DNA from: Octopus bimaculoides
Taxonomy: Eukaryota
Length of the DNA stretch: 56,872 bases
NCBI RefSeq assembly: GCF_001194135.2
Contig: NC_068986.1
Location: forward strand, 23,928,813 to 23,985,684
Direction of reading: 5' to 3'
Part shown: positions 46,494-56,159 of the stretch, piece by piece
Position numbering within the stretch: the stretch's first letter is position 1
How the letters are laid out: each line of letters begins with the position of its first letter
Position numbers and translations under genes: made by a program
Notes under the pieces: generated by a model
The model's database searches: none
What the model was told of the DNA's origin: nothing
What the model saw: only the letters and a program-made list of their open reading frames with translations

Positions 46494-46574
46494 TTATTTA
46501 TTTATATAAGGGCATTACTATACAAGAATGCCTCACGATATGAGGGACTCTAAGGTCAGACTACCATAATAATA

Positions 46575-46745
46575 TGAAATCACTATGTCGCGCACATATG
46601 GTTGAGATGCATGTACCTGGCATACCCGTATGATACGGGTTGTCATAATGAGTATACTAGGCTTCGTATATTTTACACCAGTGTCACTTTGATGGCATGC
46701 GCTGCCCTCCCACTCAATAATATTTTTTTAAATAATGATAATAAT
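46575..46745 (+). mobile_element. 3' tail of a SINE/LINE-like repeat ending in (AAT)
   Basis: cactatgtcgcgcacatatggttgagatgcatgtacctgg...gtgtcactttgatggcatgcgctgccctcccactcaataat resembles an octopus repeat tail I recall; single copy here. Confidence 0.45.
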
Positions 46746-49700
46746 CATTTCTACTATTGGCACAAGGCCTGAAATTTTGTGGAGGGGCCAACTGGTATTT
46801 TATGGATTTCATGGGATGAGAGCCCTAATACATACGGTATCATTAAAGGTACTTATTTTATATTCCTAACATTCACCATATCCCTAAAATTCAATTATAT
46901 ATGAACAGTAGCGTTTCCTTTCTGGAAAACTAGATCATTACCTTTCCATTGATGAAACCATGGGTTACCCCTCAGAATTTTCTGTATGAGACCTGAACCG
47001 ACAGTTTTCCATCAATATTAATTGTCTATATATTTGTCTATAGCTATGAAGTATCAAATCGGGCACTGACAGTATTTTCTAGTTTAAATATAACTAGTTC
47101 AATTGTCTCTTAGTCCCATCAGAGATTATACCTTATTTCCTTGGAAATTATGCGCGAAAGCGAAATCTTACCGTTAGCGTTTAGTTATTTAAAAATAATT
47201 AGGATTTCATATATTAAAACAAAAACTAGAACTGCTGATCAGCGGAAGACTGCATTTAATGGAAGTACACTGTTTTCTAAAAGAATGACAATAAAAGACA
47301 GTGGCTGGCATTTTAGTCATAGGTTTGCTCTCAGGTGAAGATTTTTGACATGCCTCCATGAAGAAGACAACTGGCGCTTAGACTCTTTCATCAATACCTT
47401 CTAAATTAGAAAAAAATATTTGTCTAAATAATTACACATGAAAGTATGTGTAACCTTTTCTAGAATGTCAAAACGTGTATCAGTTTGCGTTTATTTCGCA
47501 GGTGAAAATAAAACAACTAAAAGCGTTGTGCAGAAGGAGGTTGTGTTATAGTAAGGTGTCATATTTATATCTGTTGAATAAACTGAAAATAAAACTAATT
47601 AAGAACTCAGAATGTAATACTACCTGGAGAAACAATGCTTGCAGCAATAGGAATTGAAAACATCTAACATTTATAATAAATGTAGAATAAACGCTATCAA
47701 ATAAGATGAAGAAGCAATATAACCAATATAGCGGAAGTCGTAATATAACCAAAATACAGAGTATATAAATATAAAAAACAAAACACCAGAAGAATCAAAA
47801 TTTTCTTTCAGGAAACTAGGCTTTAGTTTAATTCTACTTGCATCATAATTAATTTCCATTGCTTATTCTATTTATATATTTTTGTTTTAATTGATATCTT
47901 ATAACACCTGCCGATGAGGAACAAATAGTTTTTTTGACTCAAAGGTTAAAAAATTACGTCTAAATATAAGCAACTGTGCAGAACAAACTATAAATCATAG
48001 CGCTAGCTCTATGAAAATCATCAAGAAAGCAGTAAGAAGTCTTAAAAACAATGACGAAAAACCAACGACCATAGATCAGGAACTAATATTATAAACAAAT
48101 ATTGAAAGAAATATTTCACTATAAATGAATAAATAAATATAAATGAATATATAACAGGATGACAAACTAGAGAATAAATGTAATTTCCATTTCTGTGTTT
48201 CTACCACCAATAACAATAGCTGTGGGTGATTTAACTAAAGTTAGGTTTTCAAAAAGTTAATTATGCTGTATTTATTTTAATTTCATTCTTAGTTTCATAA
48301 TTAATTTCCATTTACAAAGTTTAATTTGAAGCATAAATTTTCTAATTTTAATTTAACAATTATAAAGATGAATATAACGAGATGTTAGGAGCAAAGGAGA
48401 AAATCACAGTGAATGCGATCTCAATACACCAAATGATAAGGGACGAAATATAGAAATAAGATTTTAACCATAGCTGAGCTGAATTACCATGGTATCTTCA
48501 TTAAAACTCAATTATTCTTTATTTAATTTTTATCACCTATAAGCAGAATTAAAATAATTAACAACCAGCAATGCAATCCCAGTTGAAGAAGTAGTATTAA
48601 TTGGCGAGAGGAATGACGCATAAATGGCAAAAATGAACGAAACCGCCAATCCAAACATATCATAAAATAGAACTACATATGCAGAACAAAGAATAAAGTT
48701 ACTTTTAATGCCGGAACAAAGAATAAAGTCGCTTTTGTTCGTAACCCCACCATTGTTACTCAAAAGGCACAAAATTAAATTAAGTCGTCATGAAGGTAAA
48801 TATGGTTTGTTTTCATTGCATTATTAATTTTACAATACACCGCAATTTCAGAAGCTTTGCATCCACCTGCTGCCTACATAGTTTTTGATTTTTTAACAAT
48901 TATAAGCAAAATTAAACAAAATATGTACATCAAAGAATACAATCACATGTACCAAGAATACATACAGAGTTACTTTCAGTGTATTTACCATAAAAAATAT
49001 TGTTCACAAAAGCTGCATAATCAACAGTAGTGGTGCATGACAAAGAAAAAATTAAAATGTTAACAACATGAAAAGAATAATGAAACTGAATAATGAGTAC
49101 TTTTCAACAAAGATGAATTCACTAGGATAAACATACATAACCAACATACAACATTAATAAATTATGAAAAATAACAAATATCATTAAAAATACAAAACAT
49201 ATAAACAACCATTACTACACTTGAACAACTAACAATGATTTCTTAGTTTTTAAACTTGCACTCTATCGACCACAACAGTCCACATTATATCTCCCTAAGG
49301 GATACAGAAATGACGCCATGTATTTGTAGAAGTAAAGTATGTAGTTATTTTTTCCTTTCGTTTTATGTTTATTTTCATAATTAATTTCAATTTCTAAACT
49401 TTCACTTCCACCTGCTGATTATCTACTTTTTGTTTTCCTTTTAAAACATGTATAAGCAATATCAATGCAAAAATATATAAAACAAATACAAGTAAAGACA
49501 AGTATATAACAGTAGAACGTAGATGAATAATGATGAAGTCTAAAAAGAAACTAACAATATAACCAAGAAACGTGAATAAGCCATCATAGAGTAATGGAGA
49601 TTAATAACCAAGACTGAATATAAAGAGCCAGGAATACAACAAAGTATATAAATATATAAAATATACTACTAAAGATGAAAACCTAACGGGTACGAAGGTA

Positions 49701-50254
49701 AAATCATAGTGTTATATTTTTTTGTTTATTATTTGTTTCACACTTCATATCTATTTATAAAGTTTTGTTTTACTATTTCACCTTCCAATTTTCAATGACG
49801 TATCATTTACAGGTGTAGAACAAATGCATTACATGAAGGGAAAATAAGAATAAAGATAATTAAGAAAGAATACAGTCACATATATCAAGCAACAAAAAAG
49901 CCAAGAGTAAAATTATAGTTGCAGGACTATGAACACTAACAAATATGTACAACCTACTCAAAAATCGATGATATCAAACCAAAGGCAGTAGATCAAGAGC
50001 TAAAATTGTAAAAACTATTGCATGTTATTATTCATATCAATTTCCACAGTTTTTCGTATATGAAGAGTTGAGATTATGATCAAAGATTAGATAGCAAATA
50101 TGATAAATTAAGTATTAAAAATGAACTTAATCCAAAGCAAAGGGCATAACTAAAAATTGTAAACCAAAAATAATTGCCGTGTAAACTTTAGTTCATACAC
50201 TATAAAAATTATAATCCACTGAGAACAAAACTGTGGTCAATTAATCATGAAAGG

Positions 50255-50465
50255 GAGATGGTGAGCTTGCAGACTCGTTTCCTACGTCGTAAAAGATGCT
50301 TCGCTGAATTTCTTCCGTGTTCTTATGTTGTGAGTTCAAATTACACCGAAATCGACTTTACATTTCATCCTTTCACGGTTAATAAAGGAAGTACCAGTTT
50401 AGTACTGGGGTCCATGCAATCGACTTGCACCTCCCATCAATATTGTTGGTCTTTTGTGAAAATTA
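50255..50465 (+). mobile_element. SINE family B, diverged, inserted in the array
   Basis: gatggtgagcttgcagactcg...gtgagttcaaattacaccgaaatcgactttacatttcatcctttc...aagtaccagtttagtactggggtc. Confidence 0.75.
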
Positions 50466-50831
50466 GAAAGAATAATTTATGATAAATATATTTCATTTTA
50501 ATAACATTTTTACTTATCATTTTATTTCACTTTCAAAAAATTCACTTGAAATACACACATTGCCTTTTATTTATCTTTCAAAATCAATATAAGGAGAAAA
50601 CGAGTCAACCCCATCTCAAGAAATCAGAATACAACAAAAGAAAATGAGCAAGATATAAAACTGGAATCTATATTTGATATGAATTTCTAGGGCATGCTCA
50701 TTTTATTCCATGGCGTTTATTATCATTCATTTCATTTTCAAGCAAACTTATCTATTTTCGCTTGTCTTCCTCTTATAACCGAGATCAATATAGCACTCAA
50801 AGATAAGTTATCCACCGTAAAAACATGAGTG

Positions 50832-51201
50832 AACAAGAGCACTCAGGGGGCGCAGATCTTCGCCAAGGCAACACTAACGTCCTCTCAACGATTAGCCAGA
50901 GATGATTTTTAAAATGACAATTTCTGAAATACACTTGACTGTGCTGACTAACGAGAATACTAAAAATGAACCCGACCGTTCTCAAGAATGAAGTACAAAA
51001 CAGGAAAAATAATCCAGAATCATTATACGGGGCCGGATCGATCCCACAATCTAATCAGGTCGTGTCAGTCACGAGGTCAGACATCCCTGAAAGTTTCATC
51101 CGAATCCATCCAGTTGTTCTTAGGATATGTTTTCCACGGACAAAGAAGCAAACAAACACGAGTGAAAACAATACCTTCGCCTTCGGTAAGGCGGAGCTAA
51201 T
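50832..51201 (+). mobile_element. Non-autonomous Helentron-like (HINE/DINE-1-type) element
   Basis: Starts aacaagagcactcaggggcgcagatcttcgccaaggc; (AAAC) tract near the end; terminates in hairpin cttcgcc-ttcggtaa-ggcggag followed by ctaa. Confidence 0.55.
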
Positions 51202-51330
51202 AAATGAGAATATTATCAAATATGATATGAATGATCAAAAACAAAGTTTAATATTGGAGAGTTACTGAAATATAAATAACCAAGGATACAGAAGAAAGAC
51301 TAACAATACAAGCAAAATATCAAGCAATCA

Positions 51331-51520
51331 TTCTTTCTACCAAATCACAAGGCTTGAAATTTTGGGGAAGGGAAATTCTAATAAGTAGACTCCATTACTC
51401 GACTGGTATTTAATTTAGCGAATCCGCGACAGAATTTGAATTCGAAATGAATGTAAGACTGAAGAAATGCTGCCAAACATTTTGTCCAGCGTGCGTACAA
51501 CTCTGCTAGTTCGCCGCCTT
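51331..51520 (-). mobile_element. SINE family B, diverged
   Basis: cacaaggcttgaaattttgggg...actggtatttaatt...cagaatttgaattcgaaatg...ctctgctagttcgccgcctt. Confidence 0.8.
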
Positions 51521-52239
51521 CAAACATTATTAGGTAAAGGATGAAAAAAATTGATAGAATGACAAAGTAACATATAGGAAAACCTAACTCTATAATTAAA
51601 TATTTATAACACAGAATGTAATTAAACATACAGTATCAAAACCATATAATATTAATTTCATTGCATCTGCCAAATATATTTCTAGCTATAACGGACAGAA
51701 TTTAACTCTTATTAAATGCAAATATATATTATTTATTATAATTATATTATTCATTTCATACATAAATTCAGTACCGAAACATTAACTTTCTGTTTCCGAT
51801 TTCCTAGTTTTAAGTATCGTATGTAGTTCTATATCAAACATGTGCAAGCATAAACATCACTGAAGCTGAAGAAGTGAGATTACCGCAAAAAATATTCAAC
51901 CGAATGTGACAACAAAGCAACATTGTAATGAAAAGTATAACCAAACTTGATATTAATATCCAAGAATAACGAGTAATAACTAAGCATATAGTGAAATATA
52001 AACAAAATTATAATCACTGCAGAACTATTAAGAAAATGATTTATGAAGTAAGAAATACTGGAAATGAATCAATGGGCAATGATGAATGCTAACTGGGATA
52101 CATTTTATACGATGGAATTTCTTTCATTTTTAGTTTCATACTTCATTTGCTTGCTATTGAAATATCCATTTTATATCCTGGTTTTGTATTTTCAGGTTTT
52201 AACACTAAATGATGTAACATCACACTAGAATACACAAGA

Positions 52240-52585
<346 letters not shown>

Positions 52586-54648
52586 CTTAAATAAAGGACC
52601 AGCAGCAAAACTACACGCATGGAGAAAACTACATGAAGAATGATGAACACAGCTAAATATGACTAAGCATGAAAACGATCAAAGATAACCAATGACCTCA
52701 AGCAACAGGAAATACAAAAGAAGTTAAGATTAACACTACAGCAATACTGGCGGATGGATAATAACAATGTCATAATTAGAAAAAAATGTACTTAAAATTA
52801 ATCATGAATTGAGTCTCAACTCATGACAGACAACAAATATGAACGTAACAACTTAGATTACAACTACAGTTCAATAAATCATAAAACAATAGAAAGGACG
52901 AAGTATAAAGTGAAGGATAAAATGTATAAGAAAGGGAAATAAAAGAACTTGGTAAAAAATACGAGATCGAATTAAAGCACTCATTGAAAGAATAGAACAC
53001 AAATCTTGAAAGTATTGGGATAAAAAGATGAACAAAAACAAATACAAGCAAAGGGGATCGATTAAAAGAATCAAAAGCAATCGTGAATGAAATCGACAGA
53101 TGATATGACCAGAACGAAAATACTCCAGCGTTGATGGAAGATGTGAACCCGAAATATTAGAATGATTCACTTAAATCACATAAGTTGTGAAGAAGAAATA
53201 ATATAATTAAAAGATTGATCCTACGACATAGAACCAAAGATATTACCATCAATACAGAATAAGGATGCATTCGAAAACACAGCACGTATGACAGACACCA
53301 AACACCAGAGTCATAGAGTACAACTCTGGAAAATATCTATACAATACCAGCAAGGAAGAATATAACAAAAATAACCACAACAACCAGGACAATGGGGAAA
53401 AAACCGACACACGGACACACAAATGGACAGAAAAGAAAACTATATAAAAAAACAAGAACTCAGAATCATTGCAAAGGAAATAAGTAAATATAAATCCAAA
53501 AAATAATCAGAAATAGCCAATGACAAAAGCAAAAAAGAAAGTATTCTTTTCGGACGTAAGATAACTAAGGATAAAGAACATTATTTTTCAACAAGGAAAA
53601 TAAAAAGCCATATAAAAATTGTATAAGATTAAGCAAGAAGGATGACATAAAACAGAGTGAATGAAAGGTAAAAAAAATATATACATAGGGTTGAGAATCG
53701 AAAACAAATAACTAGTATTATATAACCTAACAGACAGAAATAGATAAGATATTAAACAGGCTGAAATACATAATGAACGATTCAGCGTACATAATATAGC
53801 TAAATAGGAAGACACAAAAATTCAACAAAAATATAAGGGTAACAGATTATATCTCATGAAAATAAGCCTGTATTAATATCAAAGTAAAACTGAAAGATCG
53901 CCAACCCCGACAAGTACATTGAGAATGAAACAAGACAAACAATAATCTGAAAGATAATCATGAAGTTAGATTGACATACATAAACGTTACTTTAGATAAT
54001 GACAACCGCAACAATGTCTCAAAAGGTGTATACGACTACCATTTGTACAATATTCTTTAATGAATACTATCAAAAGGAAAATTAGAAGAAATTTCTCCTA
54101 AGATAACGTAAGGAAGGATGGGTAGCTACATTTATATCAAAGGAAAACAAACACATTACAAGATCATAGTAGATTACACAAGAAGGAAAACAGTAACACG
54201 GAGTCAAAGAATAGAACAGAAACAAAATTACAAGTACAGAATTAGAGGGGAAAAAAACAATCAAAAGGAATGATGACAAGAACTGCAGACGATATAAAAA
54301 ATAATATGACTAATAATACAACAATATTCAGTGATGAACAATGGAATTAGAATTTATTTCGAATAACAATAAACTATGAAAATCAACTAATATGTATAAC
54401 AAATACTAACACCTAAAATGAAGAAAAAATATTGCCTAAATTGCAGAACTAAGAATATATTCAAAACATCTATACAAACATTCATAGCGTTATTTTATAA
54501 AAACATAAACAAATATTCAAACAAAATACGAAAGATGCAGACTATAACTTAAGAATAACTTAGGAATATCAGCATACAATAACATCAAAGTTGAATTTAA
54601 TAGCATGAAAAAAATGACTGAAAGCAATGAAAAGAACGTACAAGGAAG

Positions 54649-54753
54649 AACCATGACATAAAATGGACATGATAGTATCTGTAGAAGATGAAGAGAAGAA
54701 AACCATGACATAAAATGGACACGATAGTATCTGTAGAAGAAGAAGAGAAGAAA
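54649..54753. repeat. 52-bp tandem duplication (2 mismatches)
   Basis: aaccatgacataaaatggaca(t/c)gatagtatctgtagaaga(t/a)gaagagaagaa x2. Confidence 0.93.
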
Positions 54754-56159
54754 AGAAATTGAAAATGGACAAAAACTAAAAACTGTATAAGACGAAGACA
54801 ACCGTAGAAGATAAAAAAGTGGTAATGTAACTTTCAAAAATGAATAGCGGCAAAAGCAACATTACAAGAATTATCTTCTGTGATGGATAAACCATGCAGA
54901 ACAACAAATACAAGTAAACGTTAACAAAACAATTCTACAGTATATAAATAAGAAAACGAGAAATTAAGTCAGCTATATAGGACTTCACTTCTAATAATAT
55001 ATTATATGTTAATATCTGTCTTCACAACGACATTCAGAGAAGCTCAGTATACGTGTCACCATCCATTCGATGAAACCATCCATTCCTTTCACACATCAAT
55101 GACCCAGGTTTTGTGAAAATGGTGCCTATATGCTCTCCTGTTTAAGGTACATTGTCCCACAGGGAAGATGTTAACTTCTACGTGATATCCCCAACGAGTA
55201 GCCTATAACAGTTTCGTAAATGAAAGCTCTCTTCAGATATTTTTGTCAGAAAGTTTCTCTTTTATTTTCGTTGAAATCTCGCAGGAGGTACTTGCCATTA
55301 CTACATCAGGTAGAATGGAATTTTGGACTTCATTGAGCTTCCGTTGAAAGTTTTCTATTTATGTAATGAGTTTTCGAAGAAAGCACAACTGGTAGCTTCA
55401 TTGTAAATATTCACGAAGAGTAATTGGCAGAAGGTTACCGTCAATTTTATAACACTTTCGCTTTTCAATATTTCCTCTAAGCATGTCATTTCAGTGTCTG
55501 ATAACAAATAGATTTTTTCCCTCAAAGGTAAAATTTCCCATTTGCTGAATAGTAAATATTCCATATTCGTTAATGAGTCTACTAAGAGATTATCGCAGAC
55601 TAAAACTGTTGCAAAATGGATTTCTGTTTTATGCACCCACTTAATATTTATTTATTCCTAACCGTATTAACTTTGTGGCGCTAAATTCCTTTTGCATTTT
55701 ACTCTGTACTGACGGTCGAATTTTAAAAGGAGCAACTTGTCCAATATTCAGTCTACGGGGGAGATTTTCACTCATGCATAAGAGGTGCTGTTCGGGGATA
55801 CATGCATATATACAAAACTAAAAATATATAAATACCTATATATACATACATAAATATGCATACATATATAAATATACAAAAACATAACACAGCCATATGA
55901 TTAAAAAAAAAATTTCAAAACAGGAATCATCCCAATAGTCAAGGATTTGTCATGTCATCCCAATAGTCAAGGCTAGTCGTGTCATCCTTGAAATCTAAGA
56001 TAGATACTCGAGTAAAATTACTAATAGAGAAACGAAAATAAACTTTAGAAACAGCAACGCCACCATAGGTTACGTGGAAATGATGAACGTGTTTTCAAGG
56101 GAGATAATCAAAGTGCGTAACATTGTAATACTTCATGTAAAGTAAATATAACAAAGGAA

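Follow-up and report, generated by a model that had tools for sequence, protein, structure and literature searches.

A decayed local array of T-rich and A-rich repeats in Octopus bimaculoides whose membrane-protein look is likely to be mostly compositional

The window analysed here, 56,872 nucleotides of Octopus bimaculoides (NCBI RefSeq assembly GCF_001194135.2, contig NC_068986.1, positions 23,928,813 to 23,985,684), contains between 47.5 and 52.2 kb an array of alternating T-rich blocks, each 100-300 nt long, and A-rich blocks, as read on the minus strand. A sequence-only reading of this DNA had seen in the array the broken remains of a repeated membrane-protein module, perhaps of horizontal or viral origin. 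The array exists at that place, and its units are homologous beyond what composition accounts for. We lean, with some reserve, towards regarding it as an old local T-rich/A-rich repeat in neutral decay, most of its visible divergence having arisen without selection at the protein level. Its membrane-protein look is likely to come mostly from base composition, the hydrophobic translations arising largely because the strand is 42-51% T, and the locus likely does nothing today.

The homology of the units is seen in several comparisons. In self-BLAST, units align at 57-61% identity across 270-740 nt. When measured against shuffles that preserve composition within 12-nt blocks, 7 of the 55 unit pairs in 47.5-52.2 kb reach a z of at least 4 (maximum 9.5) and 12 reach at least 3. 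Gap-free matches scoring at least 18 number 19 in the real sequence, against none in either of two shuffles, and ten of the 19 fall inside 47.5-52.2 kb. A head motif is common to the units at 52152, 51772, 50736, 49754, 49391, 48846, 48311 and 47859. Unit pairs and triplets recur in a nested pattern, such that 50489-50750 resembles 48269-48551, 49639-50041 resembles 47756-48126 and 51521-52220 resembles 49145-49806. The nine or ten units proposed earlier become 11-12 or so on this evidence, and the array does not end with them, since about four related units continue at 52.6-55.0 kb, past a microsatellite. This extension is internally repeated, has 49% T on the minus strand and is joined to the noted array by a single 75-nt match, at 47680-47754. 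The array has a G+C content of about 28%, compared with about 32% for the window.

What kind of repeat is this? Head-to-tail units, homologous beyond composition and evolving neutrally, are what a degenerate local tandem repeat would show. Satellite DNA, with its regular period and homogenised, abundant monomers, is a poor description, since Tandem Repeats Finder sees no array period and the family occupies a single locus. Nor were the many dispersed copies of a dispersed element found. Searches with Rfam, and with Pfam on read-through frames, gave no hammerhead ribozyme and no reverse transcriptase/endonuclease frame; Rfam placed no family on the units and returned only weak, microsatellite-driven matches at 52.24-52.55 kb. 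Degenerate euchromatic tandem repeats and relic satellites share with this array the nested, head-to-tail units on one strand, the local distribution, the neutral decay and the insertions. They differ in that the units here are 0.2-0.9 kb long, only about 60% alike and missed by Tandem Repeats Finder, and in that the family is not high-copy.

Apart from one or two remnants, which share its contig and strand, the family is restricted to this locus. The window, which is rich in microsatellites, lies on contig C6 of the 2.34 Gb genome G000. The clear remnant (G000:C6:23548350-23549270) is 430 kb away and 61% identical to the extension over 745 nt (z=18.1), and a weak one (G000:C6:23746800-23747400; z 3.1-6.2) is 230 kb away. 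No others turned up in the surrounding 671,685 bases, of which 41% were masked, and no further copies came from DNA, pattern or protein searches of the genome, the protein searches being insensitive enough to miss the window's own 61% paralog. Beside the far remnant, at G000:C6:23545226-23545297, lies a 73-nt piece with 74% identity to the unit end 49450-49518 (z=4.2), hinting that the far locus may once have held both halves of the array. The array most likely grew from a seed module, made up of a T-rich and an A-rich part, which unequal crossing-over or short segmental duplications turned into nested tandem copies. The outlying pieces, at 230 and 430 kb, would have been placed by larger duplications, and point changes, small insertions and deletions, three mobile elements and a microsatellite would then have eroded the array. 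The seed may have been non-coding, or a membrane-protein fragment that was dead by then.

The three mobile insertions of the sequence-only reading are all present, at 50260-50490, 50832-51203 and 51320-51520, and all are high-copy. The first has six other matches in the window, and in related organisms the read depth over the insertions is in the thousands, against a flat single-copy depth on the units. For the second, of 372 nt, 3701 candidate copies were found in the genome and 40 were scored; it is 83-86% identical to 39 other full-length copies. Because it has thus diverged by 14-17% from its nearest copies, the array has probably been decaying for a long time, and some 7-8% decay per copy since the insertion landed is suggested. 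A contig of organism C spans the first insertion and contigs of organisms B and E span the third, and these two therefore predate the splits.

The locus itself is present in the related organisms at about 4% divergence. In organism B a single contig covers 47300-50295 and shows 117 other letters and 80 gap letters, and organisms C, D and E have parts of it. Among 40 of the 394 difference rows for organism B, those in a 62-codon stop-free stretch (47674-47859) comprise 2 changes that are synonymous and 7 that are not, where the synonymous share of sites is 0.20. The changes in related organisms are neutral-looking, with no sign of selection at the protein level. In about 6% of each of three raw-read RNA runs from one study, of unstated tissue, depth on the units was 0-0.11 in all three, with cover over the insertions only. 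Unit homology, the insertions, the scant RNA and these changes together bear out the view of a repeated, dead array interrupted by three elements.

Do the translations nevertheless record a coding past? The six unit-end and three upstream peptides picked out earlier all occur in the minus-strand translation, as do the four synonymous third positions between the tails at 48.9k and 49.45k and the TAA near 49601. The peptide at 51650-51700 is misplaced as a unit end, however, since the DNA aligns it with a stretch that follows a unit head. The codon-level signature claimed from such peptides survives in a four-copy tail motif, which is considered below, but in neither of the other two motifs tested. 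There is no synonymous excess in the eight-copy head motif (P=0.13) or in the five-copy core of the 52.6-55 kb extension (P=0.88). Pooled strict blocks give 39 synonymous codon pairs against 40.2 ± 3.8 in the null, and pooled loose blocks 98 against 98.5 and 107 against 112.9, so that a one-frame excess is confined to one of three motifs and is absent when blocks are pooled. Mismatches in the long gap-free blocks are flat over the codon positions (19/23/24, 12/11/11 and 15/16/13). In the longest block, of 178 nt, none of the three frames lacks a stop column common to both copies, so that the DNA was duplicated when already dead, spans a gene boundary or did not code. In the core of the extension, a second candidate frame has a column identity of 40% against 34%, but several copies do not keep it open at the motif, and both frames stay candidates.

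Tests of strand, stop load and hydrophobicity agree with this. In 15 of 19 unit pairs the DNA z equals or exceeds the protein z of the minus strand, and this strand, which the sequence-only reading would have expected to stand out, does no better than the plus strand (protein z 2.11 against 1.68, P=0.33, the same 19 pairs). The cheapest path through stops and frameshifts costs 41.0 compared with 36.4 ± 3.1 in shuffles, and 23.5 compared with 25.2 ± 2.6, giving no advantage; in a retroelement-like control the same test gives z=-5.1. The array thus shows neither fewer stops and frameshifts nor more helix-like windows than composition would give, as might be looked for in a pseudogene cluster. 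Hydrophobic windows in 47.5-52.2 kb are in excess of single-base shuffles (z=3.5), but the z falls to 1.9 against dinucleotide shuffles, and in 52.6-55 kb it is -1.0. An unrelated T-rich tract of 520 nt (58% T), behind what we take to be a Penelope-like fragment (the two together at L029:2450-3500, G000:C6 near 24028130-24029180), gives 14 transmembrane-like windows. The earlier caveat that a T-rich strand yields hydrophobic translations by composition was therefore well placed. Two TGA columns common to copies had prompted a test of TGA as a sense codon, for tryptophan; the frames are not opened by it (z -1.4 to 1.5). A T-rich repeat, it seems, can yield in-register hydrophobic peptides and a few convincing synonymous swaps, and yet fail pooled coding tests.

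Searches for a living relative were blank. Pfam gave nothing on the units from 10 stop-free stretches and 19 read-through frames, except for one chance match (E=0.89), with 49302-51523 covered by the pieces of two frames only; PHROGs gave nothing for 7 read-through queries. No homolog was found among 5.8 billion proteins, and the protein searches gave 16, 12 and 8 candidates, none of them at E≤1. A profile search of 1.84 billion representatives, built from five segments of the core at 52.6-55 kb and using one candidate frame out of three, gave no match at E≤0.001, and the best ESM Atlas score, 0.78, was no usable match. Viral contigs, phage records, plasmids and prokaryote genomes, in searches most of which reach close relatives only, gave no match either. 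Nor did the insensitive own-genome protein search find the intact homolog that the sequence-only reading would have looked for. The weak own-genome protein matches L010, L011, L012 and L017 are not homologous (top z 3.0 in 24 comparisons). These blanks are weak evidence, the queries being decayed, of low complexity and uncertain in frame. No description of the locus was found in the literature covered; Supplementary Table 4 of PMC9068888, on unnamed squid gene arrays, may bear on it.

Several observations nevertheless weigh against the neutral-decay reading, and most of them are the case for a row of small multi-pass membrane-protein paralogs, genes or domains of the host, partly selected and long dead, whose codon signal decay has mostly erased. 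The strongest is the four-copy tail motif, in which 14 synonymous and 11 non-synonymous one-base codon pairs give a share of 0.56 against 0.26 (P=0.001 against shuffled columns, taking the best frame of the three), the motif being picked post hoc and the pairs not independent. In aligned blocks of 47.5-52.2 kb, the best frame has 41 stops against 57.9 in the null (z=-3.0; -1.9 in strict blocks). Composition in 47.5-50.25 kb has a period of three (z=3.2), but background windows reach at least 2.5 in 6 of 21 cases and at least 3.2 in 3 of 21, and a positional score has z=2.8 on the minus and 3.4 on the plus strand. At codon position 1, G is commonest in most of the hand-picked frames, in one of them significantly; several heads have an ATG only a few bases from a stop. 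The T-rich blocks are of helix-bundle length and are followed by lysine-rich tails, and in the 52.6-55 kb extension and the remnant two motifs stand 316 nt and 262 nt apart, spacings with the same remainder modulo 3. Random membrane-like genes simulated with the same block lengths give a mean z of 6.9 and 3.7 if most divergence was selected, and at most 1.5 once each copy has 10% neutral decay. By this model the coding tests lose their power at 10% neutral decay per copy or more, and the age of the insertion is of that order. It is unlikely all the same that the cluster diverged mainly while its genes still worked, because the simulation predicts a visible synonymous signal there and the pooled tests show none. 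Two of the three motifs and all pooled tests count against dead paralogs, and neither the insensitive own-genome search nor the two large protein collections yielded an intact relative. Units less than 50 nt apart would also be unusual packing for animal genes. The membrane-protein ancestor of the sequence-only reading thus keeps the tail motif, a weak period of three and the stop deficit, but loses on the pooled synonymous, strand, stop-load and homolog tests; we judge such host paralogs an unlikely but serious contender. A coding ancestor of either sort, host or foreign, is possible yet doubtful.

The same close packing, with stops beside ATGs at several heads and no introns visible, would also suit foreign DNA: a packed row of small membrane-protein paralogs would have reached the germ line from a large DNA virus or an AT-rich bacterium, multiplied by local duplication and then decayed. 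The low G+C content, the single-locus distribution and the one codon-like motif could be read in this way. No match to it came from PHROGs, phage records, plasmids, viral contigs, prokaryote genomes or protein representatives, within the reach given above; the DNA adjoining the units yielded no gene of viral, transposase or bacterial type. TGA as sense opens no frames, which disfavours a mitochondrial or mollicute source, and Pfam, with the coverage stated above, gave no family such as a nuclear mitochondrial copy would show. With no evidence found for the horizontal or viral origin once suggested, we regard it as improbable. Put in full, as a fossil operon-like row of at least 15 small multi-pass membrane-protein genes with no known relatives, of viral or bacterial source, entering before the sampled species split, then multiplied on the spot and put out of action by mobile elements, the idea earns equally little credence from us. 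Still less can be said for internal or terminal repeats of a dispersed mobile element, such as a Penelope-like one or a retrozyme array, or for a satellite family. The neighbourhood is dense with mobile elements, and the T-rich tract behind the Penelope-like fragment, 45 kb away, has a similar strand bias and a BLAST match. That match (C6:24028130-24028680) vanishes against local shuffles, however (z at most 2.9 over 10 units), and is a compositional likeness. The lack of dispersed copies, of an Rfam family on the units and of an array period, together with the flat single-copy depth in related organisms, makes this origin very improbable. Might the locus be active in other tissues or stages, as a source of long non-coding or small RNA or as regulatory DNA? 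Two stretches, of 2.7 kb and 2.4 kb, are free of insertions, and organism B has 28 differences in 901 nt of array against 11 in 200 nt of flank, but this contrast is not significant (P=0.13, from the same 40 rows). The near-absence of RNA in the sampled runs, and the finding of only two folding windows with z<-2 when both strands were scanned, leave present activity hardly credible.

PMC9068888 describes fragmentary reading frames in cephalopod protocadherin clusters and mentions unnamed gene arrays in squid. Pseudogenised tandem clusters of that kind resemble the present family in leaving paralogous relics on one strand over hundreds of kilobases, among mobile elements. They differ in that no living member was found here, the units abut, and codon selection appears in one motif only. 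For yeast, 10.1101/621532 and PMC10063215 report that T-rich DNA outside genes translates into transmembrane peptides. The path from composition to hydrophobic, stop-poor peptides is reproduced here with the unrelated tract, although the T-rich DNA here forms a repeated family and belongs to an animal, with no transcription seen in the sampled runs. If a coding ancestor did exist, the locus would record a lost membrane-protein family of which no member is known; if that ancestor was foreign, this lineage would also have fixed the insertion of a packed gene row, a rare event. The cytomegalovirus US12 family is a tandem row of membrane-protein paralogs in a large DNA virus, and packed, intronless, hydrophobic paralogs on one strand would look like this array after decay. 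In contrast to such rows, there is here no sequence or profile match to a viral protein or contig and no other viral gene nearby. No long-standing question becomes testable until a living homolog is found.

On the minus strand the noted array begins with the unit 51790-52200 (head 52152), after which 51525-51790 (head 51772) is interrupted by an insertion, with a remnant of the unit perhaps continuing at 51210-51315. The segment 50560-50830 holds the tail of the preceding unit (motif 50782) and a short unit (head 50736, tail near 50587), and 49800-50560 holds one or two units, with a mobile insertion between the parts and a head near 50532; its part 49800-50060 matches 47910-48340 with z 6.4. 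There follow 49410-49800 (head 49754, tail motif 49459), with 105 codons and one stop in one frame, the long unit 48870-49410 (head 49391, tail motif 48909) and 48530-48870 (head 48846, tail motif 48546). The short unit 48340-48530 is homologous to 50560-50760 (unit-pair z 9.5; DNA z 11.0 in the protein-versus-DNA comparison). The unit 47910-48340 has the best head motif, at 48311, a low-complexity spot at 48086-48156 and z 5.0-7.3 with four other units. In the last unit, 47500-47910, the head motif at 47859 starts the 62-codon stretch mentioned above, and the unit weakly matches the weak remnant. A compound microsatellite (52232-52590) separates the two halves of the array. Beyond it the extension, at 52595-55050 on the minus strand, comprises about four degenerate units of 500-700 nt, with z 4.4-18.1 to the far remnant. 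At 54649-54754 it contains a recent 52-nt tandem duplication, 96% identical.

The neighbourhood looks gene-poor, as judged from long stop-free frames. About 670 kb contain 883 stop-free frames of at least 65 codons, and the 150 longest, when scanned, gave mobile-element domains and weak strays above the cut-off. Beside the far remnant, a stop-poor frame at L006:1407-1781 has a weak MENTAL match; it was rejected as a relative because it is the end of an unrelated multi-copy element. The surrounding L006:1344-2233 (G000:C6:23545343-23546232) forms one end of an element that is dispersed over many contigs, where it gives 74 matches at E≤5 and copies 70-82% identical, and its frame, which has no Pfam match, presumably resembles a DNA-transposon protein. 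In the surrounding region, a PIF1-like helicase frame at L018:1703-2272 (E=2e-26) and, at L044:1265-2245, a frame of 327 codons containing a zinc knuckle are likely mobile-element genes, and a match at G000:C9:85099427-85099543, inside a 2331-codon open frame, is due to chance. Within the window, 60-1450 is an A-rich plus-strand stretch, stop-poor and with a strong period of three; it has no Pfam match, and we take it to resemble the end of a Penelope-like retroelement. High-copy repeats at 46520-46800 draw many partial RNA reads from elsewhere, to a depth of up to about 190 per strand.

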